18,172 nucleotides of DNA from a virus, in the IMG/VR virus record IMGVR_UViG_3300028591_000955, positions 1 to 18,172 of that record, one strand, 5' to 3'. Each line of letters opens with the position of its first letter. The stretch's first letter is position 1. The notes beneath the pieces are model-generated. The model did not search any database and was not told the origin of the DNA. It was given only the letters and a program-made list of their open reading frames with translations. A program made the translations under genes and the position numbers. This document shows positions 1 to 17,060 of this stretch, one piece after another.

Positions 1-3000
1 ATTATATTCAATTGTTCGTGTTCCATATCTCCACTTGCCAAACCATAGCTTTCCGCAATACCAGTAATTTCAACTCTTAATCGTCCTAATTCTTTTGGAG
101 TATAGCCAAGATTAATAAAAGGAATACGTGCCATAAAGTTTTCAATATCAGGCATTGTTTCGCCTTCATATAAATAATGTTCTACACCATATTCATCTTT
201 ATATAAATGCCGTTGACCCGCATTTGGATTTTCTGTTGTTCGAACACCACCTCAATACATTCCGTATCCTGCGAAACCTTCGTGGCTTCAAATATCTCCA
301 AAATAAAGAACTTTTTGCTCGTAATCTTGGCTTTCTGGATCGTGCGGTTCTACTAAACTATCATAGATAAACTTAATACTGTCTAATTCTGCTAATTCAT
401 CAACAGAATACCATCTTTCTGGTTCGTATAAACGACCGCCACTACAACTAACTGGCTTATATCTATTAAACCATTCATTTGGCATATAATCAACAAGTTG
501 GACTTTATCTTCAAACTCATCAATTCGGAAAGTAAAAGTATCACTTGCGATTAAATGGTCTTCTCCAATTTCATCTCTAAAATATTCAACTGGGACATAG
601 ATAGGAGCAACTTGATAAACAATTTCATAACTTTCTTTTAAATCTTCTGGCTTATCAAGTCTTTCATCCATCTCATACCATTCAAAAGTTTGTCCGTCTA
701 AATAATATTTTTCTGGCTTAAAACGATTTTTATCTACATAAAAATCAATATATTCACCATCTCTAAAATCACTTTGATCTAATGAAACAGTATATTCTCC
801 AACAGGTTCATATGTTCTAATACCATAAATTTTTTTCTTAAACTTGATAGTTGTAGTATAAACCTTGATTTCTTCATCTATTGGATGATATACGATATCA
901 TATGGAGAACCCTCTACTACACGCGGTAAAGAAACTCTTCTACCAGTATACTCAAAATCTGTTTCGTATCCTGGTGGCTTATATTTATTTATTCTAACAA
1001 TATCTCCAAAAGAAGGAACTTGATAAAAATCTCTTTCAAGTAAAGTAATAGTTTCTTCTTTTAGAAGAGTTCTAACACCCGGTTCGTCTTCTTTTCAATA
1101 ATTTACTGAAATTGCGGTCGGGCGTTCTTCATAAATAACATTAAATGTTCTACCATTTAAATTATCAAAACTAACAATAAAATCATCATCAACCATTACT
1201 TTTCCATTATGGTAATAAGCGGGTTGATAACGATCGACTTGGAAACGTTCATATAAATCTAATTCATAAACTGTCTTAAACTCATCGCCACGCATCCAGT
1301 ATTGAATTGAGTTAATTAACTCTGAACCTTTGTAGTAATTAACTACATAAGAACCTATTTTATGTGCTAAATTAGTATCAACATAGCGAGTATCATCTCT
1401 TATGTTAAAACTATTTTTTCCAGTATAATCTTCAAAGAATAAACCAGTAATTTTATCATATAAACAATTGCTTGGAGCAACTTTATCTCCGATTTTATCA
1501 TAAAACTGAACTGGAATAAAATCTCTTACGAGCTGGCCGTCATAATAAATCTTACAACTATAAATACCAACATTAGAAATACCCGTATGTTTTTGAGGAG
1601 ACCCATTAGTGGCATTACAGAATAAATAAATCGGACAGCCAAGATTGGAAGATGATGCTGTCATTGGATAAGAATAGGTAAATACTGCTCTGCTTTCTTT
1701 ATTTGGGATATCTACTGTGTAAATACCACTATTTTCTGAAAAACTACGAGCTTCACTTTCTACAATAGCAACACCGTTGTGATTAGCAAAATCTGCTATA
1801 ATTTGTTCTGGACCGCCACTTTCTTGTCTGACAACAGATAATTCATAATTACCATCTCTAAAATCTGGTAATTCACCAATTCTACCGCCGGCACACGCTT
1901 CATACATATTGTCTAATATTCTTGTGCTTGTGCCAGTAGCAGTAAGATTTCTATTATGATATCTCATAAAGAAAGCAGAAGTTATTCCCAAGTTTTCTGA
2001 ATATCTCGCTGCTCCAAATAAATAACCATATTTTGGATTGGTTGCGGACATTGGCTGATCTGGATGGACTAATTCAACTTCCATTTGGATAGATAGTTTA
2101 GATGGGTCCGCAACAGATACGCCTGTATTGATACCAGCATTATTTAAAGTTCATTCTGGATGAAGAGCATTTAAATCTGCTGAACCCATATCATTATGTT
2201 CCAAAAATAAAAATCTATGTGGATATTCATAATCTTGTGGTTCACCAGCGTCTTCATTTAAAGTATAAACAACATTTAATGCTTCTAATACTACCAACGC
2301 TCCAAATGATACTAATCCTTGGTAATCTACAACACCATTCTCTGCGTTAATATTTTTATAGCGATTAAGATTTAATCCTAAATCAAATAAAGTTGTTTCA
2401 TCCGTAAAATCAATAACTCTATAAGAAATAACATCACTACCAACTCAATTTTCGTCCGAGATTGTATTATTATAATATCTGACTGGTGTTTCATAAGTTT
2501 TCGCTAAATAAATAACATCATAGCTGGACCCAAGCTCCTCAAACGTAAATAATGTGGAACCTATACCGCCATCGATGAAACCATCATCATAATATTCTGG
2601 CTTATACCGATTAAGATCAATTAACTGATTTAATCGAACACCGCCAATTGCTTCACTTTCATTTATAGTAATTAAACTTGTGTTGATGGTTGAATAAGCA
2701 GAAGCGAGTTCTTGCTTATATCTAACAATAATATTTTTGCTTCTATCTTGCGAAACAGGAATGTAGATTACTTCAAAAGGAGATGCGTTCAATAACGCAG
2801 ATAAACTCACTTCACCATTATAAAGTAATGATAAATCTACTTGATAGCCATCTGTTTTATGTTTGTTTAATGGAATGATTTCCCCTAATGTAGGTTCACC
2901 CACAAACATTAAATCATTGATTTCTATCGTTTCTGAAATTGGAGTATCAGTTTCTCCGTGCTCGTAATAACGAACGGTAATAGGATAATTTATAGGTTTA

Positions 3001-4388
3001 TAATAAACCTGTAAAACACTTCTATTAACCAAATCGTCAAAAGTGAGGATTTCCTCTGCTTTTAACATAACTCCATTTTCATAAAAAGTTGACTTATATT
3101 TATCAAGATTAAGATTTAAATCTTCAATTAAATTAAAACTATCTTCATACTTATCTTGATATGTTAGTGTTAAAACATCAGAGTTAATTCTTAACCAATT
3201 AGGATATTCACCATTATAATATTCAATATAAATATTTAAGGGTTTCTTGCTATATTTTACGTCATAATTTAATTCAATAGTATCATAAGAAATTAAATCT
3301 TGTAAATTATGATTTTCAATATATCCAGTATTAAAATATCTTATATTAGGAATATATAGATTTGGATTGATAATATCTTGTAAAGTCATTCCGTCAGCAA
3401 TATCACCTTGTTTTACAACAACGACAGAATGATTTACTACCTCAAAACTACCATCGTCTTTTTCTACTGAATAATTAACAACGACTGTTTTTTGCTGCTC
3501 GGATTGTATTTTATCATAATAAATCTGAATAGGGCTTGCCAATAAAAGATTTTCTACTGTTAATTCATCTTCAAAAATAACAGATGCTTTATATCCATTT
3601 GGCTTATATTCTTTTAGATTTATTAACTGTCCGATAGTGCGAGCATCTTGAACCTGTTTTGCGGTAAAAGAAAAGTCTTGTTCCAAAAGTTGGTTATAAT
3701 ATCCGCCTCCATCATTCATTAAATAAGAAAGTGTGATAGTATATCGTGTTGGTTCATAGTTAATAATTACCGCTCTGATATTCGCGAGATTTTCAAAAGT
3801 TAAATCAACCCCTCGCAAATTAGTAGCAACACCATCTTCATAATAATCCATTTTATATTTATTTACATCAATTCCAATAGAGGCCAATGTATCTCCTGTG
3901 CCCTTAAAGGCCGCATTACGAAGAGTAATTACATCGGTCGCAATTAAAGTTGTGCTATCGCGATAATATAAAATAGTTAATCTGGTGCTGTCAGTTAAAC
4001 GCTGATTTGTTGTATAAACTTCACGTTCACCTTTTGCGTAATCGCTGGTAAAATTATACCTAACAATAAAATTACCATTTTTTAATCGTTCAGTTGAGGC
4101 TTCCCCTTTCATTGTTAAGTTAAATGTTAAATTGATATCATCAAAACTTACACAAGAGGTTTTTAGTAATTGTGTTAATTTGCTAATTTTTATAAAAGCG
4201 TCTTCTTCATTTTGACCCAAAACTAAAAAAGCCAACTGAACTGGTCTAAAACGCTCTTGTTGGCGAATATAAGTAGGTTGAATATCGCCGTCTAATCAGT
4301 CTTGTTTTGTATCAACTGTATTGCTGTTTAACACTCTATCATACAACTGGATACCAAGACTGCTTAAATCAATACCATTTATTAGCAT
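1..4388 (-). CDS. Giant tail-tip protein whose 3' end runs off the window (>1,460 codons). Dit-like (distal tail protein) N-terminal domain fused to MucBP-like repeats and a central lectin/jelly-roll-like domain. Read with TGA=Trp.
   Basis: ATG at 4386-4388 with AGGAGG at 4395-4400. Track ORFs 2445..4235, 1095..2084 and 288..671 share one frame. I hand-translated the gaps (4236-4385, 2085-2444, 672-1094, 3-287) and found no TAA/TAG, only TGA at 4296, 2445, 2151, 1095, 288 and 252. The N-terminus MLINGIDLSSLGIQLYDRV...LAFLVLGQNEED...VSFDD resembles siphophage Dit N-domains (recollection, not a search). Confidence 0.75.
300..3986 (-). repeat. Array of >=11 divergent ~75-85 aa protein repeats inside the giant tail gene: about 7 copies at ~2210-3986 and 4 copies at ~300-1340, flanking a non-repeat domain at ~1340-2200
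   Basis: Recurrent core motif: VNKYKMDYYEDG, LKEYKPNGYKAS, LDKYKSTFYENG, LNKHKTDGYQVD, LNRYKPEYYDDG, LNRYKNINAENG, VDRYQPAYYHNG, INKYKPPGYETD, KNRFKPEKYYLDG, FNRYKPVSCSGG. Each copy starts with a Y.V.Y-type strand and ends with a Y[DEN]V.Y-type strand. This pattern is typical of MucBP-like beta-grasp adhesin repeats. Boundaries are approximate. Confidence 0.65.
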
Positions 4389-4543
4389 TAAATACCTCCT
4401 TTTCTTTTTAACTCCAAACCTATTTCATTCAATAGGTCAGTTTTAATTTCTTGTTCTTTTTCATCAAGACCTGAACGAACATCTTGATAACTTGTTTGAG
4501 GCATCTGGATTTCAATTTGTTTCATTACATCTTTATAATCCAT
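4388..4543 (-). CDS. Hypothetical 51-aa helical protein between the chaperone-like gene and the Dit-like gene
   Basis: ATG at 4541-4543 follows GGAGG with a 7-nt spacer. Translation: MDYKDVMKQIEIQMPQTSYQDVRSGLDEKEQEIKTDLLNEIGLELKRKGGI. Its TAA overlaps the next ATG (TAATG). Below the track's size cut-off, so it is my own translation. Confidence 0.5.
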   Translation of the reverse strand: MDYKDVMKQIEIQMPQTSYQDVRSGLDEKEQEIKTDLLNEIGLELKRKGGI

Positions 4544-4554
4544 ATACTTTCCTC

Positions 4555-5064
4555 CTAAACATTAAAATTGCGGAATGTTTGATCGTGCTCTTTAACAGAG
4601 CCAATTTCATAATTTTTTTCTTCGGTTATCTTAATTGGGTCATCATCATTCGCAGCCACTTTTTTTAATGCTAATAGGGTTAAGTTGGCGGTTAATTCTT
4701 GACGACGTAAATAACCGATATAAGCATTTTCTACTTCATCTTCTGTCATATTAAAAAAATCAGTAGGCGAAATACCCATTTCACCTACTGACTTCTTATA
4801 TAATTCAGATATTCTTTCTGATGAAGGAAAATCCAAATGGGACAATAAAGTAGAAAGTTCTGATTTTGTTAAATCGTATGGCTGAAAATTATTTAATATA
4901 GAAGATATAAGAAGTTCATTCGTCCCTACTCTTGTCCCTAATTTGAGAACATCTTCGACAGAGATTTCCTCATTATTATCTATAAGATAAGAAAGTTGAA
5001 TTAAACTTTTCAGTCCAAAAATGAGCGGGACATATTTCTTATCTATTTTAATATAATACACCAT
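4555..5064 (-). CDS. Tail assembly chaperone-like protein (called by position)
   Basis: Track ORF 4555..5094 trimmed to the ATG at 5062-5064 (MVYYIKIDKKYVPL...). It lies immediately downstream of the major tail gene and ends in TAG. The function is inferred from synteny only. Confidence 0.4.
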   Translation of the reverse strand: MVYYIKIDKKYVPLIFGLKSLIQLSYLIDNNEEISVEDVLKLGTRVGTNELLISSILNNFQPYDLTKSELSTLLSHLDFPSSERISELYKKSVGEMGISPTDFFNMTEDEVENAYIGYLRRQELTANLTLLALKKVAANDDDPIKITEEKNYEIGSVKEHDQTFRNFNV

Positions 5065-5449
5065 CAATCTCTGCTCGTAAGCTGCCTGTTCCAAGCAAAC
5101 TTATTCTATATTTATAACTATCATCATATGTAGATGATAGAGGAAAATCAACAATAAGAGCCTCTCCTGAATAAAATCCAGAAGATGTTTGTAGTTTAAC
5201 TTTTATACTCTTATTATTCATAAACGCGTCTTCTATTTTTTTATAACTTTCAGCATTTAAAATATAGGCCCCATTACAAATGATCTTTCAACTCTTTATA
5301 CCAACCAAAGAGGTTTGCCATTCGCCAGTAATTTTATTGGTGATATCAATAGGTATTAAAGAACGATCAAGATTAACATTTAATTGACCTGCTACTGGAC
5401 TATCGTCTAATAAAAGAAGTATATTTATGCCCTTTTGGATATTACTCAT
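5048..5449 (-). CDS. Major tail protein (TP901-1/phi13-like, 133 aa), one in-frame TGA
   Basis: ATG at 5447-5449 follows GAGGGGGA. Track ORF 5288..5479 continues in frame through TGA 5288-5290 to TAA 5048-5050. The sequence ...ITGEWQTSLVGIKS[W]KIICNGAY...SGEALIVDFPLSSTYDDSYKYRISLLGTGSL matches the pattern of small siphophage major tail proteins. Confidence 0.7.
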
Positions 5450-5450
5450 A

Positions 5451-5840
5451 TTAGTCCCCCTCTTTCGTTCCAATAACAATATTAAATGTATACGTTATAA
5501 CACCGTGTTTGCGAACGGGGCCGGTCGCCTTATCACCCAATATTCGGCACTGATGTTGAACTATATTCAGAACTTTTTCATTATTCATCTTTATTTCTTG
5601 AATATTGTTACCAATATTTTCAATAATCTCTAAAATCTCTTTTTCGCCAGGATAATTAGAGAAAATATCAATGGTTAAAGATATTTGGTCTATTCTAATA
5701 TCATAAGCATCAACTCTATTATGGCCTGATGTTCTAACAATTAACCAAGGAAATTGTTCTTCGTATTGTCCTCCATCTTTTATATTATACCCCAATTTTT
5801 TTAATAACGCAACTAATTGCTTTTTTAATTCATTAACCAT
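5451..5840 (-). CDS. Tail terminator / tail completion-like protein (DUF3168-like, 129 aa)
   Basis: Intact track ORF with AAGGGGG upstream of the ATG, positioned directly before the major tail gene. The motif ...FPWLIVRT...ISLTIDIFS... is typical of this family (recollection). Confidence 0.5.
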   Translation of the reverse strand: MVNELKKQLVALLKKLGYNIKDGGQYEEQFPWLIVRTSGHNRVDAYDIRIDQISLTIDIFSNYPGEKEILEIIENIGNNIQEIKMNNEKVLNIVQHQCRILGDKATGPVRKHGVITYTFNIVIGTKEGD

Positions 5841-5844
5841 AGAA

Positions 5845-6024
5845 TTATGCCCCCTTTCGAGGGTCTTCTACTAAATGATAAGCCTCTATTGTATCAAACT
5901 TACCTAAAAATAAAAACTTAACATATAAATGCTGTTCTTTCCCGTCATTATCAAAATGAGGTTCTACTCAATCATAAACAAAGCCATCTGGGGCCTCATA
6001 TTTAGTAATTGTATGATTTATCAT
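5845..6024 (-). CDS. Hypothetical 59-aa protein, one in-frame TGA
   Basis: ATG at 6022-6024 follows GGAGG. Translation: MINHTITKYEAPDGFVYD[W]VEPHFDNDGKEQHLYVKFLFLGKFDTIEAYHLVEDPRKGA. TGA at 5968-5970, TAA at 5845-5847. Own translation. Confidence 0.5.
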
Positions 6025-6035
6025 ATTAACCTCCA

Positions 6036-6596
6036 TTAAATTATTTCAACTTCTGGAACATAGCCTCCTGGGCCTGAACCAGAACCACGAGACGAATAAT
6101 CTGCTCCTAACATAACTTTTGCGGTAATTATAACCGCACTTACAATCATTGTAGCCAACAATCCAATTAGCGAAAATCCGAAATCAATACCGCCCTCTTC
6201 ATCGTCTTCCATTTCTTCCATCTCTTCTTCATATCGCTCTTGTTCTTCTTCCATCGCTTCTTCCATAGCCATTTGTCATAACGGCATAGCTTCTCCAAGA
6301 GCCATTCTATAAGCTGGTTCAAAATAAGGCTGGGCGGCCATTTTCCAAGTTCCATATTCTACATACTGTGCGTATTCTGCTTCTGCGTAAGCTTCACATC
6401 AAGTATCATAACCTTCTGCTCCAATAGTGCTTTGTAAAAAACCGGTATCTACTGGAACTAATGTTGTTGCTATATCATAAAAGGTCTCTGCGAATGCCGC
6501 ACAACCCTCACTATAATCTGGTTCAATTCCATAGATAGGCGTTGCGTCCATAAAGCCCAAATCTTCAATTACATCAAAACCAACTCAAAGTCCCAT
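6036..6596 (-). CDS. HK97 gp10-like head-tail joining protein fused to an acidic stretch, a transmembrane-like helix and a Gly-rich tail (186 aa, three in-frame TGA)
   Basis: ATG at 6594-6596. Hand translation runs in frame through TGA at 6585, 6399 and 6276 into track ORF 6036..6272. The core ...LVPVDTGFLQSTIG...YAQYVEYGT.KMAAQPYFEPAY is the gp10-family signature. The C-terminus is EEAMEEEQERYEEEMEEMEDDEEGG, then IDFGFSLIGLLATMIVSAVIITAKVML, then SSRGSGSGPGG. Confidence 0.65.
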
Positions 6597-6608
6597 AAAC
6601 CCACTCTA

Positions 6609-7172
6609 CTATTCATTCTTTAAATAAATACAATATCCATTATTACTTGGGTATAAATCGCTTGTCGAAGCAGTTGACGAACTTCAAATATTTATATATC
6701 CCTCGTCTATATCAATACTGCCGCTTAATCCAGATTGAGGGCCCAATAAAACAGGAACTTTTGCGGTAGTGTCGGAGCTGGAATTAGCAGCAAAAAGGGT
6801 ATATCCGATGTTGCTTGAAGAAGTATTCATTTTATATATATTATTATCATAAAATGGGGCATAAACGTAATATGCCGGTGTCCCACCAGAATAAGATGCT
6901 CGATGAAAAAAGAACATTATAATTTGACTATTATCATCAAAATCATTTGGAAGATTAGCGTAAATTCGCCATTTACCATTAACCTTTCTTGTGGACCTAG
7001 ACATAGGACGGACAGCAACTTTTATAGTTGCTGTCCCGCTCCCTAATGCTTCTATTTCAGTTGCCATATCAGAAGGAGATAATTTTTCAGAACTACCTGT
7101 TTTTTCTCTAATTGCGTCGGCGATATCTACTAATGTGCTATTTTGTATAATATAATTTTCTGATAATGCCAT
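6609..7172 (-). CDS. Fibre-cassette protein (187 aa), one in-frame TGA
   Basis: Track ORF 6684..7172 continues through TGA 6684-6686 to TAG 6609-6611. Its ATG overlaps the upstream TAA. The N-terminus NSTLVDIADAIREKTGSSEKLSPSDMATEIEAL is a motif I recall from Firmicutes phage fibre-like proteins. Confidence 0.55.
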
Positions 7173-7363
7173 TAGAATGTCGCCTCCTCTGCGGACGGAA
7201 GGTTAAGAGAAATAACCCCATCTTCACTAATTGAAATACCTGTGCCCGCAGTATAAACAGTCCCACCAGCATTCGCAATTTCTGTTTTAATTGTTCCTAC
7301 TAAATGAAGTAAGCCATCTCCATTTAACATTTTATTACCATATTCATTTGTATTATCTGCCAT
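7172..7363 (-). CDS. Small fibre-associated protein (63 aa)
   Basis: Track ORF 7172..7453 trimmed to the ATG at 7361-7363, which follows AAGGAGG. MADNTNEYGNKMLNGDGLLHLVGTIKTEI...TAGTGISISEDGVISL shares motifs with the neighbouring fibre genes. Confidence 0.55.
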   Translation of the reverse strand: MADNTNEYGNKMLNGDGLLHLVGTIKTEIANAGGTVYTAGTGISISEDGVISLNLPSAEEATF

Positions 7364-7369
7364 AAAAAG

Positions 7370-7411
7370 CCTCCTTTTAAAAGAGGTGCGGGCAACTCTA
7401 AAACCGCACCT
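7370..7411 (-). terminator. Terminator-like hairpin between fibre genes
   Basis: On the minus strand AGGTGCGG (7411-7404) pairs with CCGCACCT (7391-7384) across a 12-nt loop. It is followed by CUCUUUUAAAAGGAGG, i.e. a U-tract and then the next gene's ribosome-binding site. Confidence 0.4.
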
Positions 7412-7477
7412 AATAATTGTTTTATAATATTTACACGTCCCATTCCATTCCAAAGAGTTGCTTTATACATTTAGTAT

Positions 7478-8080
7478 TTATTCTGCTGATGCCGCAGACC
7501 AAATACTATCGATTTCAGAGTTAGATAAATAACTTAAATTAACATTAGTATCGCCTAATTGTTCCCAAGCATTGTTAATATAAGCATATTCAGTATAAAC
7601 ATTTCCAGAAATACCAGAACTCTTTAATACTAAATAAATTACATTTGCTTCGCCAGTTGCTGGTAGTGTCTGAACGACTTCAAAATGAAAGCCTGTCATA
7701 CTTCCAACAGCAGAAGCAATATCACTCATTGTTGCGACTTTATTAGATGACGCATTATATGCTGTATTAAAAACAAGAGCATCTTGCTTTCCATCCCAAG
7801 CAGAAATCTTGGCACTTGTAATATCTTTTGCCGCACTGGCATTAAAAGCAGGTTCAGTTTCTGCTGGAATATCAGAAGCAGTAATAAAACCTACGTCATT
7901 CGTGAAAGCAGAAACATTTGAAGGAACAGTCGGAATAGTAGGAACGTTATCAAGTAAAGCATAATCTAACTTGCTACTTGATGTAATCGCATCCTGCTTG
8001 CCGTTTAAAGCCGCTTTAACCTTTCCCGCAAAATAACCAAGATGTTCGCCATCTAATAATTTATTATCATAAGCTGCCAT
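7478..8080 (-). CDS. Tail/neck fibre-like protein (200 aa)
   Basis: Intact track ORF with GGAGG upstream and a TAA stop. It contains VPTIPTVPSNVSAFTNDVGFITASDIP, a motif shared with 8320..9957 and common in phage fibre proteins. Confidence 0.65.
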   Translation of the reverse strand: MAAYDNKLLDGEHLGYFAGKVKAALNGKQDAITSSSKLDYALLDNVPTIPTVPSNVSAFTNDVGFITASDIPAETEPAFNASAAKDITSAKISAWDGKQDALVFNTAYNASSNKVATMSDIASAVGSMTGFHFEVVQTLPATGEANVIYLVLKSSGISGNVYTEYAYINNAWEQLGDTNVNLSYLSNSEIDSIWSAASAE

Positions 8081-8094
8081 ATATGTGTTTCCTC

Positions 8095-8316
8095 CTACAT
8101 ATTATTTCATATATCATCAATATCAGAATTGGTAAGTATTTCTCTACCAATCATATTCAAATTATAATCACCCACTGCTGGCATTACCCCTCCAACTCTA
8201 TTATTTCAAGAAATAACGCCATTTTCTCCGGGGTCTCCTTTTGGGCCAGCAGGACCGCGAATAGAAGTTATTTCAACCCATTCGCCATTAGCATTTTTAA
8301 TTTTTAATACTGCCAT
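8095..8316 (-). CDS. Small collagen-like protein (73 aa), two in-frame TGA
   Basis: ATG at 8314-8316 follows AGGAGG. Translation: MAVLKIKNANGEWVEITSIRGPAGPKGDPGENGVIS[W]NNRVGGVMPAVGDYNLNMIGREILTNSDIDDI[W]NNM. TGA at 8206 and 8107, TAG at 8095-8097. G-X-Y triplets fall at ~8218-8256. Own translation. Confidence 0.6.
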
Positions 8317-8319
8317 AAA

Positions 8320-9957
8320 TTATTCCTCCTGTGCCGTAGCTACAAGATTTCCAGAAGTATCTACTGTGATTTCATACACTTTTCCATTCGCATCTTTTAA
8401 GTATAAAGCAGTTGCGGCATTGGCTTGTGTGGTCGGAATTTCAGATTTAAGTGCATAATTATTCCTAATGTATAACAAGTCTGCACCTACGGTAGACGCT
8501 GCACCTGTAACACTTTGGTTTGTTTTAACAGATAATCCTTCTGCACTTATTGGAACGCCTAGTTCAGTATTTACTGATGCATTATTTAATGTATAATCAT
8601 CCTTATTAAATGAAATAACTAATCTTGGAAGTATGCTTTTACCACTCGTATTTGCAAAACTATCGCTCTCATATATTAATTGATGAGCAGCATTTGTTGT
8701 TCTCTGCATTTTTAGTTGTCAATAGTTAATTTTACTTCCATAATTATTATACTTAACTACTGGATAAATAAATCCATTAGATAAAGCTGTCCCCATATCA
8801 GCTAATCCAGTAGCATCTAACGAACTAATTGTATATAATTCATCAGTCCATGTATAACTGCCGCTACCTCCGCCAACTGCGGCAGTCGTCCATTCAACAC
8901 CTGTTTCATCAGATTTTACCCCAAGAACTTTACCCGCATCGCCAGAAGAAATAACTGGTAATTCTGCTTCGGGAATATCTGTTAATTTAGCATATTCTGT
9001 TTTAATAACTTCAAAATTATCATCTAAATATACAACATCAGGTGCTAATTTTCAACTATTCCCAACTTTAATATTTGATAAAGTTGCTTGGGAATACCAA
9101 ACAAAGTTCATAACACCATCTGGTTGCCACTCACCGTTAACAAGTGTGGCCCCCATTGATAACACTCCTCGCCGATTATCGGTCCCGTCAAAATATGCGT
9201 GGTAAACACGATTATAGCTATCATAATGACTTTCAATTAAAGAATAATGGTAGACGGTCGCCCCAGTGTTATATCATAAAATACAAGGATAATTTTCTGC
9301 TCCATATATTAAAACATTATATAAATAATCTTTATCTTCATCATCCAAATCTTGAATGCTAAAAAAACTGGTAGCCCCCTGAATTAAACGAGGTTTTTTG
9401 ATAGATACAATATTGTCGGTAATGTTAATACCTTCACCAGCCTCATAAGTTTCTCCACTGCTTTCTGGGATAACTGGTTTATCAACTAAATCATTATAAC
9501 TTCCAGTAGTAGCAACAGTTGCTAATTCCGGCATCTCTGGTAAATCATTACTTGTAATATAGCCAGCATCGTTATTAAAAGCCGAAACATTTGTAGGGAC
9601 GGTCGGAACGATAGGAATGTCTCTCTTTGTAGCAACCACTGTATCATCAATACTGACAACATCATTAGTAATATCAATACCTATTCCTGCGGTTAATGTA
9701 TTCCCAGAAGGCGAAACTGTTCCTTGCGGGTTAATCCAAACATTAACATTCTCATCTGACGGCTCCTCTGTTCCGACATACACACCAGATACCCCAGGTT
9801 CGCCATCCCGTCCTTGTAATTGGTCTAATTGTTCTTCTGTGAAATCTTCAAAAGTAAATGCGTCTCCCTTATCGCCTTTTGGTCCCTTTAAGACATTCAT
9901 TAAAGACGCAGTGATTTCAGGAGTTTCCATTTTTACTTTAATTTCAGGAGTTTCCAT
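8320..9957 (-). CDS. Fibre protein with short collagen-like G-X-Y runs (545 aa), three in-frame TGA
   Basis: Track ORFs 9274..9957 and 8320..8709 are in the same frame. I hand-translated 8710-9273 and found only TGA at 9274, 9052 and 8719. Motifs include GPKGDKGD, GRDGEPG, TAGIGIDITNDVVSI and IPIVPTVPTNVSAFNNDAGYITSNDLP. Stop is TAA at 8320-8322. Confidence 0.75.
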
Positions 9958-10286
9958 TAGTATTTAACGCCTCCTAAAATCTTAAATCTTGCGGGACCAA
10001 TTACAGTATCCACACGGTCTTCACCGGTATCAACTTGAATATCATATAAATAATTTCCAGGAGCTAAATCAGTATCTTCTTTGGATAAGTGTATTAACGC
10101 TTTATTTTCTACGAACTCTGTAATTGCTTTACTAATTAAAGGTCGTTCTTTTTCTAATTCATTATTTACAGTAAAATAAAGAACTGTCTCTGCGGTAATA
10201 TCATAATTTTCCAAAGAAACTAAAAGATCTCCTGTATCTTTTGCTATCATAGAAAGCATTTGTGTATCTTCTTCGTATTTTAACAT
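9957..10286 (-). CDS. Small structural protein, possibly Ig-like/fibre-anchoring (109 aa)
   Basis: Track ORF 9957..10328 trimmed to the ATG at 10284-10286, which follows GGAGGG. The ending ...LAPGNYLYDIQVDTGEDRVDTVIGPARFKILGGV is a beta-rich motif. Function is unassigned. Confidence 0.45.
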   Translation of the reverse strand: MLKYEEDTQMLSMIAKDTGDLLVSLENYDITAETVLYFTVNNELEKERPLISKAITEFVENKALIHLSKEDTDLAPGNYLYDIQVDTGEDRVDTVIGPARFKILGGVKY

Positions 10287-10294
10287 ATGCCCTC

Positions 10295-10597
10295 CTATTC
10301 CGCAGTTTCCATTAAAGTAGAAAACCATTCGTTTCCCATTTTAACTTGCTGAACTACACGATATAATTTATCTTGAAACTTATATCGTGCTAAATAATTT
10401 TCATCTAATTTATAATCCGTTGTCGTAGTAAGCTGCTGATATCTAACAAGTCCAGCTCCGTCGACAATACCAGTAATCGCAGAAATTGACACATTCGCAG
10501 GAATAATTTCAAGTGCCTCTTTCTCTACTGGTGTTCCGCCTTCGTCATCTTCGCCAAGGATTAAAAGAATGCGTTGGATTTGATCTCTTTTTACCAT
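10295..10597 (-). CDS. Head closure / head-tail adaptor-like protein (100 aa)
   Basis: Intact ORF immediately downstream of the gp6-like connector gene. Size and position fit a head-closure protein. No strong motif recognised. Confidence 0.4.
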   Translation of the reverse strand: MVKRDQIQRILLILGEDDEGGTPVEKEALEIIPANVSISAITGIVDGAGLVRYQQLTTTTDYKLDENYLARYKFQDKLYRVVQQVKMGNEWFSTLMETAE

Positions 10598-10599
10598 AA

Positions 10600-10896
10600 C
10601 TACACCGTTTTAACCTTTCTAAACTTGTTTAACATCTTTCTAATTTTATCACTATAAAAACTTTCGTAGGAAGCTCCTACACCAGACCCTCTCTGGCTGG
10701 TTAAGTTTTCGCTACCTAAACGATTAAAACGCTCAATAACCATTTCAATAACAATAAAATCAAGTTTATTATCATATTCTTCAAGATTACAATAAATATA
10801 TGCTTGCTGCTTACAAATACTAATTAAAGTGTTTAATGTTTTATCAACAGTAGGATCATCCATTTTGTTTAATAAAAGTTTAATTTTTTCTAACAT
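10600..10896 (-). CDS. gp6-like head-tail connector protein (98 aa)
   Basis: Intact ORF with AAGGAG upstream. It is the first gene after the capsid terminator. The N-terminal pattern (LLLN...DD...D..L..LI..A...I..YC) is typical of gp6-like connectors (recollection). Confidence 0.55.
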   Translation of the reverse strand: MLEKIKLLLNKMDDPTVDKTLNTLISICKQQAYIYCNLEEYDNKLDFIVIEMVIERFNRLGSENLTSQRGSGVGASYESFYSDKIRKMLNKFRKVKTV

Positions 10897-10913
10897 TTAT
10901 TGTGCTCCTTTAC

Positions 10914-10955
10914 TGTAAAAAAATAAGGCTTGCCTGCCATTAGACAAGCAAGCCT
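10914..10955 (-). terminator. Rho-independent terminator after the major capsid gene
   Basis: On the minus strand AGGCTTGC (10955-10948) pairs with GCAAGCCT (10933-10926), with extra inner pairs, and is followed by TTATTTTTTT. Confidence 0.75.
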
Positions 10956-10961
10956 ATAAAA

Positions 10962-11747
10962 TTATTCTTTTGTAATCTTAATAACACGAGTTGCGTCTGT
11001 GAGAGCAACAAGGGCAACCTTACGAGTGTAAACAGTATTCTTACGAATGTTAGCATCTCTTTCAGGTTCAACCTCAACACCCTTCTTAATAAAGCAAGTA
11101 GTAGCCTGCTTTGTGAATAAGAAAGCGGTGTCTTCTGGAACGGCCTTTGAAACTACAACAGGAACGCCGCAAACAGAACCAATATAGCCAGTGCGGACAT
11201 TGGCTTCAACATAAGAAAGGTCATCTTTAAGAGCCTTTCTGAACTCTGCCTTTTCTGCTGGGTTAATAAGAAGTGTTAAGCCTTCTTCTTCTTCATAAGG
11301 ATACTTCGCGATAGCATCAACTACTGCGTCATAACTCCAATCTGAAACTGAAAGTGTAAGAGTAGCCTTACCAAGTTCAGCAATAACCTTATCTGTAAGG
11401 TCATTAACCATTGCTTCGGAAATAGCCATCATACCTCTATCAACTACGATAGGATCTGTCATTTCCTGCTCGTCAAACCAAGCAAACTTACCCTGGGTTG
11501 TGCCAACATCGTATTCTTTTGGTGTAAAACTAACTTCAAACTCTTTTGTGTTGCCCTGACCCATTGCTAACTCTTCAAGTTCGCCACTGGCTGTGTAAGT
11601 GTTAATAATTTTCTTCATTCCAGGATTTTCAGTAAGACTGTAATCTGCTGTAATGAAACTATTCATATCAATTTTTGTCTTTAAAAGACTTTCAAGTTTA
11701 TTTTCTAATACAAAGTTTTCATAAATTGTATGTGGTGATACTGCCAT
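10962..11747 (-). CDS. Major capsid protein (HK97 fold, 261 aa)
   Basis: Intact ORF with GGAGG upstream, positioned after the scaffold gene and followed by a strong terminator. Codon usage is visibly more GC-rich than in neighbouring genes. No TGA; both Trp codons are TGG. Confidence 0.8.
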   Translation of the reverse strand: MAVSPHTIYENFVLENKLESLLKTKIDMNSFITADYSLTENPGMKKIINTYTASGELEELAMGQGNTKEFEVSFTPKEYDVGTTQGKFAWFDEQEMTDPIVVDRGMMAISEAMVNDLTDKVIAELGKATLTLSVSDWSYDAVVDAIAKYPYEEEEGLTLLINPAEKAEFRKALKDDLSYVEANVRTGYIGSVCGVPVVVSKAVPEDTAFLFTKQATTCFIKKGVEVEPERDANIRKNTVYTRKVALVALTDATRVIKITKE

Positions 11748-11767
11748 AAAATAATTCCTCCTAATTT

Positions 11768-12346
11768 TTATTGAATAAACGATTTATACAATTCTGGATT
11801 AGTCCGGTATAGCTCCGCCTGCTGGGCGATAGTCATTTTGTTAAACTCTTCTTTTGTTAAACCAGTCTGTTTTACCGAACTGCTCTTTGGCGTAGGAGAC
11901 GCAACTTTCTGTGCTACCGCATCTGCGACAGCTGCCTTAAACGCTTTTTCAAAAGTGTTTATATTGTTTAACATTGTTTCCGCGTCTTCCGCTACGATAT
12001 AATCTACAAACTCTATCGGGAGACCTCTATTAGACATAACTTTCGTTGCTTCTAACTTGTTTTGAGCGATAGCGAACTCTTTTTCTTTCGCTTCAAGTTC
12101 TTGAAGTCGCTTGTCATATTCATAATCTTTACGCTGATTTTCATCCATCGCTCTTAATTTTTCGGCCTCTGCGGTCTTCGCTTCAAACTCTTTCTGTTGC
12201 TTTTTTAACGCACTTGAAACTCTCCGGTCGCCTTCGGCTTGTAATAGAGCCTGGACTTCTTCTTCGGTATAAGTTTTCGGTGCGGCATCCCCTGTTTCAG
12301 TTGGTGCTCCAACAGAACCCTTTTCCGTTTCTTTATTTTCAATCAT
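11768..12346 (-). CDS. Capsid scaffolding protein (DUF4355-like, 192 aa)
   Basis: Track ORF 11768..12373 trimmed to the ATG at 12344-12346, which follows AAGGA. The sequence is charged and helical (EEEVQALLQAEGDRRVSSALKKQQKEFEAKTAEAEKLR...) and lies directly upstream of the MCP. Confidence 0.7.
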   Translation of the reverse strand: MIENKETEKGSVGAPTETGDAAPKTYTEEEVQALLQAEGDRRVSSALKKQQKEFEAKTAEAEKLRAMDENQRKDYEYDKRLQELEAKEKEFAIAQNKLEATKVMSNRGLPIEFVDYIVAEDAETMLNNINTFEKAFKAAVADAVAQKVASPTPKSSSVKQTGLTKEEFNKMTIAQQAELYRTNPELYKSFIQ

Positions 12347-12449
12347 AAAAATATCCTTTCTAACTGCCCTCAATAGAGTTCAGTTTAGGGTTTCTCCCTC
12401 TTATACATATAATAATTCTTTTTTTTTAATAGAACAAAATCGCCCAATT

Positions 12450-13346
12450 TTATTCATCAAAGTCTTCAACTTCGCTAATTTCTACTTCTTCTGTATATGC
12501 CACAAAAGAACAAGCACAATTTGGATGGTAGGGAGGAAGATCAATTCCAATAGCGGCATCTTTAATTGGAACCGGGTCTCCATCTACATAATCTAAACAA
12601 ATACCGCCACATTCCGCATCACCAACAATTTCAACAAACTCAACACCTTCTGTAATCATTCGTTCTTTTGCGGCTTCTGAAAACATAGCCATTGTTTCTG
12701 TTTTTATAAGTCTGGCTGCGGCATAAGCGGTAGAGCCTGTTAACTTTCTCCAAGCCTGGACCATTCAATCATAGCCCTTACCCTTTTCAATGCCCTGCTC
12801 TAATACATAACTTAATTTATCTCTAAAATTAGCGACATTCGCATACATTCTTTCAGAATAAATCTTTCCATCAGAACATCAAGGTATTTCAATATAATGT
12901 TCTGTAATATATGTATCTGTAATTTGAACTGGTGGAAACTCTGGATTTATCACAGGAAAATGATAAATCTCGCCAATTTGCTGATACGTTTTTTGATATG
13001 TATCAATCATATTCTCTTTTATGACATTACAAGCAATCCAGAAATATTCAGTAAAACGTCTCCACTCTTTTTCTTCAATTTCTTTTAATGCCATATAAGT
13101 CTTTGGGTGGTTGTATAATTTTATCTTTTCCTGCGGAACCAGAACCCCATCTTTTTCCAATTTTTTCAATTCTTTAATACATTCTTTGAAAGTTTCTTCG
13201 CTGATGTCATTTAAATATCTTTCTAATTTATTATCATTTTTATACGCATCAGCCAAGAGTTCAAGAACCAACGCCACAGTCAATTCTTCATACTCGTTAT
13301 GTATATGCGGCAAACGCTTGAAGTAGTATCTATCAAATCTACTCAT
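12450..13346 (-). CDS. Minor head protein, SPP1 gp7 / Mu F-like (298 aa), two in-frame TGA
   Basis: Track ORFs 12879..13346 and 12450..12764 are in the same frame. The gap translates as [W]CSDGKIYSERMYANVANFRDKLSYVLEQGIEKGKGYD[W]M..., with TGA at 12879 and 12765. The C-terminal signature is ARLIKTE...DAECGGICLDYVDG...PPYHPNCACS. Confidence 0.85.
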
Positions 13347-14694
13347 TATCTGCTTCTACCTTATTTAAATGATAGTTCTCTTGATACAAAGAGAGTGTAT
13401 CATTATAAAAAGGGCTCTTTTGTTTCATTTCTTCTACTCTGCGGATTTCTTCTTGTGGGTCTTCCACGAAAGGAAGTTGTGATAGTAATGTCTCCGCACT
13501 AACAATACCGTCTAATTTTTCAACCATATTTGCTAAATCAACCTCATTAGCTGGCAAGTTTCTCTTAAAGTGAATATCAATTGAACGTCAATCGAAACCA
13601 TCTCCAAGAATAGCATTCATTTGAGCGATTAACTCAAATCTCTGTTGTAATCCCCTCTTAAACTTACGCTCTTTAATAGATACAAGGTTCTCTGTTCCCA
13701 AAGTCTTATACTCGATAGCAATACCAGAAGTATTCCCAGCAAAATTATCATCTGTTAAGTTCGGGCATTTTGCGAACTTATGAATGTCCTGGTCTAATCT
13801 AATCTTCTGATTTTCTATATTTGTATCACTGGCATTTTTAATAAGCCATTCCGCATTCGTCCCCTCATCCATAAGAAGGACACGATTTTCTTTCATTTGT
13901 TTAATATCTTCTGCGTCCGCAGTGAAACCATATAAGCACAAATAGGCGTCAGCGGCATATTCAAAATCATTTAAACTATCGCTTTCCATCTTATCATACG
14001 CATCAATAAGCGAAATAACAGGCTCAAAATCACCAATTTCTTCATTGTTATTTTTATAAATGGCTACTGGAACCATACCGAAGTAATGATTATAACTTTC
14101 AATAAATCTTAATGAAGTATTACCAGTTGTATTAGTTTTATAGATAGTATGACTTGTATCTGTGATAACTTCAATTACAGTTTCTACCTTATCAGTTGTA
14201 ATATCATAATCATCATAATACCTAATAAAAGCCAAAAGCGAATGTTCTACTGTCTTATCAAAAATTGGAATACCTTCTTTTGGCGAAATAGTAGTAAATC
14301 TAATCATTTTATCTTCTTCACCAAAATATAATAACTCAAAACCGACACCAAAAATACTACAATTCTTTGCCAATTCAGTATTTTCATCAGCCTCATCGTT
14401 ATATTCCAAAATCATTTGTAATTCTTTTAATTTTTCCTCATCATTAGAACTATATGAAATCGGTTCACCAACGAAATAACCTACCAAAGTATCTGTAATA
14501 TAACTGGCATAAGCATTTGCCACTTTGTTATTAGGTTTTGTTGGGTCAGACATTTGTCTACGATTTATATCATTATCAGTATGATAATAACGTTCTAACT
14601 TCAATAAACGAGGTAGCACAGATGATTTATGCTTTTCAACGATACGCAATATCGTTTTTTCATCTAATTCATCTACATTATTTAATGTAATCAC
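13339..14694 (-). CDS. Portal protein, SPP1 gp6 family (451 aa), one in-frame TGA
   Basis: GTG at 14692-14694 follows GGAGG. Track ORFs 13588..14694 and 13339..13557 join in frame through TGA 13588-13590 (...GDGFD[W]RSIDIHFKRNLPANE...). Stop is TAG at 13339-13341. Confidence 0.9.
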
Positions 14695-14704
14695 ACTATA
14701 CCTC

Positions 14705-15943
14705 CTATAACAACAAATCTTTCTTTATAGATTGTAATTGCGGTTTTGCCTCTACGCACTGAATAGAATAACGCAACGCATCCAAATAGTGGTTCCATAA
14801 ATCAACTGGTTCGTTGATATATTCATTAGTTTGTCGGTCTCTTTTTCACGAATAATTTTGTAATTCTTCAATCAAAGCCTCACAAGACGGATGAATAATC
14901 AATTCATACTGTTGAAGTTTTTGAATACCTTGTAAAATACTACCTTTTCCTTTCGCACACGGAAATATCCTACGAATACCAGCACGTTTTATTTCATCAA
15001 TACTCTTGTTCTCCGCACTATCAGCACAAATAAGGCTTTTAGCAAAACCCATCTCTTTTATATTTTTAGCAATCTCATCATTCAAATAACCAGTTCCGCC
15101 CCATTCTTTAAATACATATATACGCTGTTCTTCTGGAACCAACAGGGCTGCGACAAAAGCAGAAGGATCATTAGTATAACCAAAGTCTAATCCGCACATA
15201 AGCTGGCCTTTAATCTTATCAGCATCAAAATCCACTATCTGCCAGTTATTATAAATCAATTTTTCTAATGAACCAAACTCGCCAAGACAATAAATCTTAT
15301 AATATGCTGGGTTTGTTTTTTCCAAAAGAAGCAATGTATCCACATAAGTTTGCGGCAAATGCGGGTTATCTAAATAATTTGTTTTAATTATTCTACATTT
15401 TTTCAAAAACTCTTTATCTGCTTCCGGTGAAAAAAAGTTTTTGAAACATCAATTCGCTTTTGACACAGGGTTGAAAGAAAGAATTAGCATCTGGTCTTTC
15501 GCTGTTTCGTGTCTAATACGCAAGTCAATCTGCGAAAAATCATCAACAGAAAACTCTGTCGCTTCTTCAAGCCACGCATCAGTTAAACCAGTAATTGATT
15601 TTATTTTTTCAGGATCATCAAGTCCAGCAAATAAAAAAGAACTGCCATTATACAATTCAATTGTAAAGTCAGTTCTATTTATTTTACAATAAGGTAATAA
15701 TTTTCAAGAAGATAATATATCCAAAAGCAATTGAAATACCGACCTCTTTATAGTATTACCTACTTTTCGTAATACTAAAATCTTCCTCTTACTTTTTAAC
15801 GCCTTAATAATTAAGTATTCTGCGGCAAAAAAACTCTTTCCTGAGCCTGCTCCTCCATACAACACTAAATAACGAGGCAACTCTTCTTTTAGCAACGGAT
15901 AGTAAACTGGATTGAAGACATTTTTATTAAAACGGATTTCCAT
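14705..15943 (-). CDS. terL: Terminase large subunit (PBSX/Terminase_3-like, 412 aa), three in-frame TGA
   Basis: Track ORFs 15704..15943, 15449..15655 and 14846..15406, plus a hand-translated tail (14705-14845), form a single frame. Walker A is YGGAGSGKS. TGA at 15704 (..ILSS[W]KLL..), 15449 (..NPVSKAN[W]CFKNFF..) and 14846 (..LQNYS[W]KRD..). Stop is TAG at 14705-14707. Confidence 0.95.
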
Positions 15944-16200
15944 TATAAAAATAAAACGTTTCCGTGCTGAACCAAGAGCATTCTTAATAAATACGATGTT
16001 CTTAAATCAAGATCTTTCATAACCTCAATTAACTTCGTTAATTCTTCTTGATCGTTAGTTGTCGGCATCTTGATAGAACGCATCTTAATTAAGGCTTGGT
16101 TAAATGCTGTTGCCGCATTCGCCGCCTCTTGGTAAGCATCTTCTACTTCTTTCATCTTTGCGTCAAAATCAATGACACCCTTTTTTTCAGTATCTGCCAT
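15943..16200 (-). CDS. Hypothetical 85-aa helical protein between terS and terL
   Basis: Intact ORF coupled by TAATG overlaps to both terS and terL. No recognisable motif. Confidence 0.5.
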   Translation of the reverse strand: MADTEKKGVIDFDAKMKEVEDAYQEAANAATAFNQALIKMRSIKMPTTNDQEELTKLIEVMKDLDLRTSYLLRMLLVQHGNVLFL

Positions 16201-16583
16201 TATAAGTCCTCCTCATTATCATTAAACGATATATCAATCGTATAGTTCATTTTATTTGCTTCAAGTCCAATAGACTTCGCCAATAATTCTAATGCTTTTA
16301 ACTTTGCGGAAGTATTATAAATAGGATCTCCCTTTTCCGCAAAAGCAATCTCGCTTAATTCTTGCGTAATACGCTTACTATCTATATTTATACTTTCATA
16401 TATTTCGTCTCTTCGCTGTGCGATATATTCTGCGATTTCGGGTTTCTTTAAGAGGGTATATGGATAAGATGGTTGTTTATTTCTACTATCTGCTCCAAAA
16501 GCCTCATAATACGCCTTGCGGGCGTTAAATCCATTTGAAATATATTTTTCCGCAAAGAGTTTCTGTTTTTGCGTCATTGCCAT
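16200..16583 (-). CDS. terS: Terminase small subunit (Terminase_2-like, 127 aa)
   Basis: Intact ORF with GGAGGGG upstream. The N-terminus MTQKQKLFAEKYISNGFNARKAYYEAF is the classic terS helix-turn-helix opening. Confidence 0.85.
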   Translation of the reverse strand: MAMTQKQKLFAEKYISNGFNARKAYYEAFGADSRNKQPSYPYTLLKKPEIAEYIAQRRDEIYESINIDSKRITQELSEIAFAEKGDPIYNTSAKLKALELLAKSIGLEANKMNYTIDISFNDNEEDL

Positions 16584-16596
16584 AATTCCCCTCCTA

Positions 16597-16620
16597 TAAA
16601 AAAACCGCTTTTAGCGGTTT
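16597..16620 (-). terminator. Intrinsic terminator immediately upstream of terS
   Basis: On the minus strand AAACCGCU (16620-16613) pairs with AGCGGUUU (16609-16602) across a 3-nt loop, followed by UUUUAU. It lies between the stop at 16619 and the terS ribosome-binding site. The stem is short, so strength is uncertain. Confidence 0.5.
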
Positions 16621-16780: not shown

Positions 16781-16789
16781 AACTATTCC

Positions 16790-16972: not shown

Positions 16973-17005
16973 ACTCCTTATTCTTTTTCCTTACCTTACA
17001 TATAT

Positions 17006-17034: not shown

Positions 17035-17060
17035 TAATTCTTCTATAATCAAGCCTTTTG

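Follow-up and report, generated by a model that had tools for sequence, protein, structure and literature searches.

An 18,172-nucleotide stretch of viral DNA (IMG/VR record IMGVR_UViG_3300028591_000955, positions 1 to 18,172; hereafter the window) contains ten genes that are broken into pieces by TGA when they are read in the standard code. The question raised by this locus is what TGA stands for in these genes and, if it is a sense codon, whether the altered code belongs to the virus or to its host. The window represents about 70%, from TerS to the tail genes, of the circular genome (approximately 25.55 kb) of a tailed phage found in ruminant gut metagenomes; the phage is siphovirus-like and is a member of a very large and very abundant ruminant-gut family. 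The observations described below show that TGA encodes tryptophan in this phage. We estimate a probability of about 0.8 that the recoding is specific to the phage and that the host uses the standard code, the host probably being a member of the Bacillota.

In-frame TGA codons and gene stops

The genes of the window are all encoded on the minus strand. When open reading frames (ORFs) were read with TAA and TAG as the sole stops, as in translation table 4, the 25 genes of the window (5,776 codons) contained 23 TGA codons and neither TAA nor TAG in frame. The TGA codons are distributed over ten minus-strand genes (Table 1); all 23 coordinates listed in an initial annotation of this DNA, which had been made from the sequence alone, were recovered as in-frame codons, and its statement that no TAA, TAG or frameshift stands in the way of rejoining the genes was borne out. 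The stop triplets in the two off-frames are 42% TAA, 21% TAG and 37% TGA, and the probability of 23 of 23 in-frame stops being TGA by chance is approximately 1e-10. The 24 complete genes terminate with TAA (16) or TAG (8) and never with TGA, as the annotation had also claimed, although its gene number of about 27 was slightly too high (the window has 25-26). TGA has thus been purged as a stop codon, and only TAA and TAG terminate genes. Re-calling the genes with table 4 instead of table 11 restored the full-length genes: minus-strand stop-to-stop segments of at least 100 amino acids covered 13,284 nt in 21 pieces with table 11 and 16,626 nt in 18 pieces with table 4. The Pfam matches of TerL, the portal and the tail tube protein run across the TGA sites without interruption (Table 1). 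Identical TGA codons were found in independent ENA, Logan and IMG/VR assemblies and are therefore not sequencing errors.

TGA encodes tryptophan

A search with the capsid protein uncovered contigs that share 97-98% identity with the window (strains L001-L005). Five Trp codons differ between the window and strains of this similarity, and all five differences are exchanges between TGA and TGG, in both directions. The TGA codons 12879 and 12765 of the MuF-like gene are TGG in L001-L004, and the TGG codons 9736 and 8890 (545-aa fibre gene) and 6345 (Neck1) are TGA in other strains (6345 in L001-L004). Among these strains TGA was never swapped for a codon other than TGG.

Codon-level alignments with more distant relatives gave the same answer. 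At TerL columns 165 and 366, where the window has TGA, TGG is present in 158 of 163 and 139 of 161 relatives, respectively; in 88 loci these columns are TGG in nearly every relative down to 36% identity. The third TerL column (80) is TGG or TTY (F/W) in the relatives. The corresponding residues are W (45) and Y (15) in the portal column, W (22 of 29 in one column, 14 in the other) in MuF, W (7) and Y (3) in the 59-aa ORF, and W in 17 of 18 relatives in the tail tube protein. When the columns of all genes were pooled, with the TGA of the query written as X so that the alignment was unbiased, approximately 760 aligned residues included 457 W, 59 F, 48 Y and 12 G, a profile that matches the one at the window's TGG columns. 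Because of these alignments and the TGA-TGG swaps between strains, we conclude that TGA is tryptophan in this phage. The table-4-like code proposed in the initial annotation is thereby confirmed, and so is the placement of TGA where homologues of TerL, portal, MuF and tail tube carry Trp, not Gly. Selenocysteine insertion and programmed readthrough were ruled out because the sites are Trp columns that interchange with TGG.

Two other explanations of the TGA codons have to be weighed here. The element could be decayed or defective, the TGAs being nonsense mutations of a dying prophage that are passed by low-level readthrough, or the fragments could be expressed as separate proteins; calling with table 11 does yield gene fragments, and some pipelines have annotated them (L004, L005). 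It is, however, extremely improbable that decay produced only TGA at 23 of 23 sites, without a single TAA, TAG or frameshift, at positions that are kept in many independent assemblies and exchange with TGG only, in a genome whose complete circle of about 25.5 kb was recovered from many samples and in which TGA stops have been systematically replaced. The other explanation is that TGA encodes glycine (code 25) and that the host belongs to the Absconditabacteria or Gracilibacteria of rumen or oral communities. Code-25 phages occur in gut and oral metagenomes, and the AT-rich genome in which TGA is never a stop would suit them, yet the TGA columns contain hardly any G, their profile is that of the TGG columns, none of the five strain-level changes is between TGA and GGN, and TGA is present in only 40% of the genes as opposed to approximately 90% in code-25 phages. 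These observations exclude the glycine reading.

A phage family with several codes

Strains L001 and L169 together tile a circle of approximately 25.55 kb. Contigs of 23-26 kb with the same genome are present in several cattle and buffalo gut assemblies (origin as judged by sample labels, e.g. STEW19 and TONG22), and complete circles of about 25.5 kb were found repeatedly across many samples. The window is AT-rich, with a GC content of 34%. The genes are arranged on one strand in the order Rep-like, N6-methyltransferase-like (missing in the window), orf60, orf53, TerS, orf85, TerL, portal, MuF, scaffold, capsid, connectors, fibre genes, Neck1, tail completion, tail tube, two small ORFs, a 2,990-aa ORF, Dit, Tal, a 63-aa ORF and an HNH endonuclease. 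More than 7,000 TerL homologues were found in the protein collection at E <= 1e-10; the best 120 listed are mostly 67-70% identical, and the longest contigs bearing them do not exceed ~27 kb. Megablast of the whole window against GenBank phages gave no nucleotide match. In a tblastn search of GenBank phages the portal protein was 40% identical to that of Clostridium phage phi8074-B1, followed by Streptococcus, Staphylococcus and Enterococcus phages among the top matches listed; a scan of the genome collection with the portal protein alone gave no match.

Eighty IMG/VR relatives were examined for their coding state. Most of them have no in-frame TGA. Many have in-frame TAG, which aligned with Gln of the window 97 times, Gln being by far the top residue, and the TAG-bearing relatives are therefore TAG-to-Gln recoded. 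They are represented by L013-L017, L020-L025, L033-L035, L038, L043 and L059, with up to 41 in-frame TAGs in the aligned genes of L017.

The stops at homologous gene ends differ between the three groups: TAA 134, TAG 66 and TGA 2 in the TGA lineages, TAA 69, TGA 13 and TAG 8 in the standard-code relatives, and TAA 66, TGA 37 and TAG 3 in the TAG-recoded relatives. Traces of the replacement can be seen at two gene junctions, connector/orf100 and orf85/TerL. Standard-code and TAG-recoded relatives have ATGA stop/start overlaps there, which have given way to TAG or TAA plus a separate ATG in the window and likewise in L018, an independent TGA lineage. The connector stop, for example, is TAG in the window and the TGA of an ATGA overlap in standard-code and TAG-recoded relatives.

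In a TerL tree three TGA lineages (window/L001, L018/L019 and L039/L041) are interspersed among TAG and standard lineages, and any two of them were joined in 0 of 100 bootstrap replicates. The relatives closest to TGA lineages use the standard code or are TAG-recoded (L018-L012, 74%; L039-L037, 66%), and the standard-code L010 is 81% identical to the heavily TAG-recoded L017. The tree and the alignments thus point to at least three independent TGA-to-Trp switches in the family, in addition to several amber switches. A fourth TGA lineage, met among the matches in the genome collection, is represented by L089 (CAVIUL010000102.1, a 5.9 kb contig of an unclassified metagenome-assembled genome (MAG), the binning of such a contig being unreliable), whose TerL is 54% identical and which has 6 TGA and 9 TGG codons in four genes.

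The ancestral state of the family would have been the standard code, with TGA stops often placed in ATGA stop/start overlaps. The window lineage would be one of at least three that independently swapped their TGA stops for TAA or TAG, after which TGG could drift to TGA, chiefly in genes for virion and DNA-handling proteins of low copy number (TerL, portal, MuF, Neck1, fibres, tail-tip proteins, HNH). The capsid gene and the few genes upstream of TerL (Rep-like, orf60, orf53) would have remained readable in the standard code, and sister lineages would have taken a parallel path with TAG-to-Gln.

Uneven distribution of the recoded codons

TGA is present in 10 of the 25 window genes (40%). The block upstream of TerL has no TGA and 8 TGG codons, compared with 23 TGA and 29 TGG in the remaining genes (Fisher P = 0.019). 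The TGG count of 29 given in the initial annotation is right for all genes from TerL onward and not for the ten TGA-bearing genes, which contain about 22. No TGA is present in the head block 9957..12373 either, where TGG occurs three times. Comparison across lineages revealed similar differences between genes. TAG is rare in the scaffold gene (4 vs 162 CAA/CAG), the capsid gene (2 vs 69) and the Rep-like gene (0 vs 16), and the capsid gene has 0 TGA vs 5 TGG. TerL, on the other hand, is heavily recoded (TAG 123 vs 255; TGA 17 vs TGG 21), and so are MuF, Neck1, HNH and Tal, Neck1 strongly so in both types of recoding. Because the highest-copy proteins avoid the recoded codon, these numbers suggest that this codon is costly to decode, which is easier to reconcile with suppression than with a code that has been fully reassigned in the cell.

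Host-inherited or phage-specific meaning of TGA

TGA makes up 38% of the Trp codons of the window, as compared with a 73% share of A-ending codons for Lys, Glu and Gln (binomial P = 1.5e-8). In the Mycoplasma phages MAV1 and phiMFV1 the TGA shares are 0.77 and 0.87, close to their own A-ending bias, and TGA is present in 14 of 15 (93%) and 11 of 14 (79%) genes, respectively. With a TGA share of 0.38 and 40% of genes the window lies below this pattern, and TGA is not its predominant Trp codon. Borges et al. (bioRxiv 10.1101/2021.08.26.457843) reported that approximately 90% of genes are recoded in code-25 phages of code-25 hosts, and 26-71% in recoded phages of standard-code hosts.

When a TerL family profile was scanned over 185,579 species genomes, the relatives found were prophages of Clostridia and other Bacillota at 50-55% identity, and no Mollicutes were among the best 80 genome-borne TerL relatives. 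Bacteria that decode UGA as Trp amount to 0.5% of 42,109 genomes surveyed (PMC13092985). TAG-recoded relatives, with TerL 44-52% identical, were found integrated in bacterial contigs of 29 kb, 154 kb and 156 kb, in which the flanks have 56-63% GC and intact genes with TGA and TAA stops, i.e. use the standard code. The integrated TAG-recoded prophages are L179:7911-18810 (ENA ERZ27297486 k141_176578), L180, L095, L097 and L104; one integrated prophage adjoins a hut operon and EF-P, others are in Bacillota MAG contigs of 154-156 kb, and one was also found free as a 25,390-bp contig.

Several observations weigh against phage-specific recoding in a standard-code host. The integrated examples are all TAG-recoded, and their TerL is just 44-52% identical to that of the window clade. 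The complete circle contains no suppressor tRNA, release factor or tryptophanyl-tRNA synthetase (TrpRS) gene, and a code-4 host would explain decoding at once. No bias in the 3' (+4) context was seen between TGA and TGG (P = 0.53), as competition with RF2 might give; at TAG the 3' context shows a weak enrichment of A (P = 0.012). Recoding is not confined to late genes: the HNH and N6-methyltransferase-like genes of L001 carry TGA, and the Rep-like gene of the second TGA lineage (L018) has TGA at a conserved Trp, so the early/late partition of recoding is imperfect. Finally, no endolysin or holin was recognised, which would fit a wall-less host; yet standard-code relatives are also without one, and because of this the missing lysin was rejected as a sign of such a host.

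The alternative suggested by these points is a host-inherited code 4, with one of the Mycoplasmatales or some other rumen bacterium reading UGA as Trp by means of tRNA-Trp(UCA), without RF2, and with the low TGA share reflecting a recent host jump. It would explain decoding without a phage tRNA or release-factor gene, the lack of TGA stops anywhere, the TGAs in non-structural genes and the lack of a recognisable endolysin or holin; the 34% GC content is in keeping with it, and since the Mollicutes descend from the Bacillota, Bacillota-like structural genes would not contradict it. However, at least three independent jumps into code-4 hosts would be needed within one family, most members of which use TGA as a stop, and the equally tRNA-less TAG-to-Gln sister lineages would be left unexplained. 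The TGA share and the proportion of TGA-bearing genes (0.38 and 40% vs 0.77-0.87 and 79-93% in Mycoplasma phages), the lack of Mollicutes among the best 80 genome-borne TerL relatives, the strong GGAGG-type ribosome-binding sites ahead of many genes, which had been noted in the initial annotation, and the rarity of code-4 bacteria (0.5%) also speak against such a host, and the lack of a lysin is common to standard-code relatives with TGA stops. Taking these together, we regard a code-4 host as unlikely.

Phage-specific recoding, to which the initial annotation leaned, is favoured by the occurrence of standard, TAG-to-Gln and at least three TGA-to-Trp lineages in one family, by the low TGA usage, by the lack of Mollicutes relatives and by the TAG-recoded relatives in standard-code Bacillota chromosomes. 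The annotation had also considered a typical Mollicutes origin less obvious. The TGA share, the relatives and the interspersed codes make such an origin unlikely, while its argument from collagen-like and MucBP-like domains loses the MucBP part, the giant ORF having no Pfam or PHROG match. We infer that the reassignment belongs to the phage lineage and was not taken over from a code-4 host. By analogy with the phages of Borges et al., a standard-code member of the Bacillota, similar to Clostridia/Oscillospirales, is the probable host, and most virion genes would stay untranslatable until stop-codon suppression became available in the infected cell.

Possible routes of TGA decoding

ARAGORN found no tRNA, including a suppressor tRNA(UCA), in the window, in the complete circle (L001+L169) or in the fetched contig parts of approximately 40 relatives including TAG-recoded ones, for many of which the contig was fetched in part only; the lone tRNA among the relatives was a tRNA-Thr in L024. 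Apart from one chance miRNA match, no tRNA, tmRNA or any other Rfam family was detected at gathering threshold or at E <= 5. Pfam and PHROG scans of the complete genome revealed no release factor and no tRNA synthetase, TrpRS included. The suppressor tRNA and the release-factor or TrpRS genes that the initial annotation had envisaged are thus not found in the complete genome. No gene cluster tracked the TGA or TAG state across independent lineages, in a list that was noisy with spurious overlapping ORFs. Suppressor tRNAs were reported in 35-40% of recoded genomes and in 35% of code-4 genomes (Borges et al., bioRxiv 10.1101/2021.08.26.457843).

With neither a tRNA nor a release-factor or TrpRS gene in the genome, suppression would have to come from elsewhere. 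UGA might be read by the near-cognate host tRNA-Trp(CCA), for which bacterial precedents exist, aided by a phage-induced weakening of RF2, or a suppressor tRNA might be supplied in trans, its source being the host or another phage resident in the cell. A tentative and rather doubtful extension of the first possibility is a tRNA-free reassignment in which a small early phage protein, made from standard-code genes, weakens RF2 in the TGA lineages or RF1 in the TAG lineages, and host near-cognate tRNAs (tRNA-Trp CCA for UGA, tRNA-Gln CUG for UAG) then read the codon. If true, it would explain why both reassignments are exactly the natural near-cognate ones, why codes flip easily between sister lineages and why the recoded codon is avoided in capsid and scaffold, the proteins of highest copy number. 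Putative candidates for weakening the release factor are orf60 and orf53, which are rich in Trp but free of TGA and directly follow the strongest promoter.

The products of orf60 and orf53 (16619-16972, minus strand) are tiny (60 and 53 aa), acidic and Trp-rich, being encoded with seven TGG and no TGA. Their genes are the first past the strongest promoter and are putative candidates for an early function, e.g. in a code switch. No homologues outside the clade and no family match were found for either of them.

Other features of the window and of the complete genome

The features of the window are listed in Table 1.

Table 1. Annotated features of the window, with in-frame TGA codons and supporting matches
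Feature	Coordinates	Strand	In-frame TGA	Evidence and remarks
Large terminase TerL, 412 aa	14705..15943	minus	15704, 15449, 14846	Pfam Terminase_3 1.8e-57 (residues 25-222) and Terminase_3C 2.8e-32 (residues 253-395), across TGA sites
SPP1-type portal, 451 aa	13339..14694	minus	13588	Pfam SPP1_portal 6.3e-113 (residues 19-426)
MuF-like head morphogenesis protein, 298 aa	12450..13346	minus	12879, 12765	Pfam Phage_Mu_F weak, under curated cut-off (29.0 vs 29.6 bits)
545-aa fibre-like protein, collagen-like N-terminus	8320..9957	minus	9274, 9052, 8719	Intact table-4 ORF; N-terminal PHROG tail-fibre matches
73-aa collagen-like protein	8095..8316	minus	8206, 8107	Table-4 ORF; both TGA kept in five strains
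187-aa protein, no assigned function	6609..7172	minus	6684	Table-4 ORF, GGAGG ribosome-binding site; no Pfam/PHROG match
186-aa Neck1/tail-completion protein (HK97 gp10-like)	6036..6596	minus	6585, 6399, 6276	PHROG 5, 5.7e-12
59-aa ORF	5845..6024	minus	5968	59-aa gene also called in independent assemblies
Tail tube protein, 133 aa	5048..5449	minus	5288	Pfam Phage_tail_2 2.2e-12 (residues 19-124)
2,990-aa tail-module ORF, first 1,462 aa, cut by window end	3..4388	minus	4296, 2445, 2151, 1095, 288, 252	
TGA-free upstream block	15943..18014	minus	none	240-aa Rep-like 18002..17292 (weak Rep3_N match), orf60 16972..16790, orf53 16780..16619, TerS 16583..16200 (Pfam Terminase_2), orf85 16200..15943
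TGA-free head block	9957..12373	minus	none	Scaffold DUF4355 12346..11768, major capsid 11747..10962 (Pfam Phage_capsid), connector 10896..10600, orf100, orf109/123
Non-coding region	16973..17291	minus		Iteron-like repeats, GC-rich structured island, best promoter-like site in window

The gp10-like label given to the 186-aa protein in the initial annotation is reasonable in view of its match to PHROG 5 (tail completion/Neck1). The giant ORF, which is complete in L169 (10156-19128), encodes 2,990 aa with 25 TGA and 25 TGG codons and accounts for approximately 35% of the 25.5 kb genome. Its neighbours are the tail tube and chaperone-like small ORFs on one side and Dit/Tal on the other, which is the usual place of the tape-measure gene; no canonical tape-measure protein was recognised in the genome. 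The giant ORF gave no match to Pfam, PHROGs or PDB sequences. It contains repeated modules of about 90 aa with the motif '...N(R/K)YKP.GY...', and its homologue in the relatives L028 and L032 is only 679 aa long.

Pfam revealed no recognisable endolysin or holin gene in the ~25.55 kb genome (window + L001 + L169) or in standard-code relatives, the relatives considered being L009-L011, L028 and L032, and no integrase was found in the window clade. Some relatives have a tyrosine integrase gene (L010:6360-7253) and small holin-like transmembrane ORFs. An HNH/NUMOD4 homing-endonuclease-like gene, located past the tail genes and ahead of the Rep-like gene (L001:2447-3052; L018:7063-7674), has two in-frame TGAs in the window clade and is strongly recoded in the TAG lineages (16 TAG vs 25 CAA/CAG). 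The 185-aa N6-adenine methyltransferase-like gene of L001 (4167-4724), which has an NPPF motif and one in-frame TGA, is cleanly deleted in the window at ~17050, where only its last few codons remain. The Rep-like protein, whose homologues were sought as a clue to the host, had only six, all on the same phage contigs.

The fibre genes between the connector and Neck1 (window ~9300-8300 and ~7450-6600) are mosaic among strains that are otherwise 97-98% identical (L001-L005, L169-L174): the fibre protein varies from 402 to 545 aa, and genes for 173/200-aa and 179/187-aa proteins alternate. Such mosaicism among near-identical strains suggests a rapid exchange of host-recognition or decoration modules.

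The non-coding region between orf60 and the Rep-like gene is probably an origin and early-promoter region, as judged by its sequence elements. It contains three iteron-like 23-nt direct repeats, TTGACATTTTTAATTCATACAAA, at ~17258-17190, a GC-rich island of about 130 nt (17185-17050) and, ahead of orf60/orf53, the promoter-like TTGAAA-17-TATAAT with a TG extension, a near-consensus extended -10 site (17034-17006). The island was tried as a cryptic tRNA and rejected: it folds as a three-hairpin multibranch structure (z-score -3.46), not as a cloverleaf, and it is conserved in the near-identical strain L001 only, not beyond the clade. No tRNA or Rfam match was found in the region 16973..17291.

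Significance and comparison with known recoded phages

Since close relatives differ in code, genomes of this family will be mis-annotated unless gene callers try codes 4 and 15 for each genome. The family amounts to a compact natural experiment, with genomes of ~25 kb and ~30 genes, at least three opal and several amber switches, and visible intermediate steps such as replaced ATGA overlaps, TGG-TGA polymorphism between strains and protected capsid and scaffold genes. Because the complete genome has no tRNA, release factor or synthetase, it also offers a tractable system for studying how stop codons are decoded in recoded phages, most of which have no detectable suppressor. Residual interest lies in this absence of a suppressor tRNA, in the recurrent changes of code among members of a single 25 kb family, and in the 2,990-aa ORF of a genome with no recognisable tape-measure or lysis genes.

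Tests against other systems in which TGA is a sense codon set the window phage apart from the Mollicutes type and from code 25. Like the window phage, the Mycoplasma phages MAV1 and phiMFV1 use TGA for Trp, terminate with TAA and TAG only, and have no phage tRNA and no endolysin. In contrast to the window phage, TGA is their most used Trp codon (77-87%) and is found in almost all of their genes, and their gene sets are unlike that of the window; no Mycoplasma phage was among the top portal tblastn matches listed. The code-25 phages of Absconditabacteria and Gracilibacteria share the in-frame TGA, which stands for Gly in those phages and for Trp in the window phage. Their TGA usage is matched to an alternatively coded host, and some avoid TGA altogether (PMC10746230; Borges et al.).

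In Agate (~127 kb, TGA-recoded) and in crAss-like and Lak phages (TAG- or TGA-recoded) the reassignment is, as proposed here, phage-specific, centred on late genes and subject to change over short evolutionary distances; for crAss-like phages, metaproteomics has confirmed code 15 (PMC9523058). These phages, however, have large genomes, often suppressor tRNAs and sometimes code-change modules with RF1/RF2 or TrpRS, none of which is present in the window phage, and their replication modules are clearly standard-code, which is not the case here. The HNH gene of the window clade is reminiscent of the intron endonuclease of Agate phages, which is reported to be preferentially recoded.

The closest parallel is provided by the small clades Topaz, Garnet and Amethyst of Borges et al., which, like the window phage, are small, low in GC and of gut or ruminant origin. 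In these clades, as here, TGA-to-Trp was demonstrated by terminase alignment, codes 11, 15 and 4 are mixed within one clade with close standard-code relatives, TGA and TAG stops are depleted, structural genes are recoded and some genes protected. As in the window family, there are temperate relatives with an integrase and TAG-recoded prophages in standard-code Bacillota, and many genomes have no detectable suppressor tRNA. The absence of a tRNA is better established in the present case, the search having covered the complete circle and about 40 relatives. The window clade differs in that it has no integrase, that neither a lysis cassette nor a tape-measure gene is recognisable, and that 35% of its genome is devoted to a single 2,990-aa ORF. 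Membership in the Topaz clade (22 +/- 3 kb, Firmicutes/Oscillospiraceae host, temperate; Borges et al., bioRxiv 10.1101/2021.08.26.457843) is plausible: the size of 25.5 kb is similar, and an integrase is found in the relative L010, though not in the window clade. The window phage is, in this comparison, a clean example of a known phenomenon, a well-supported TGA-to-Trp recoding that is most likely phage-specific.

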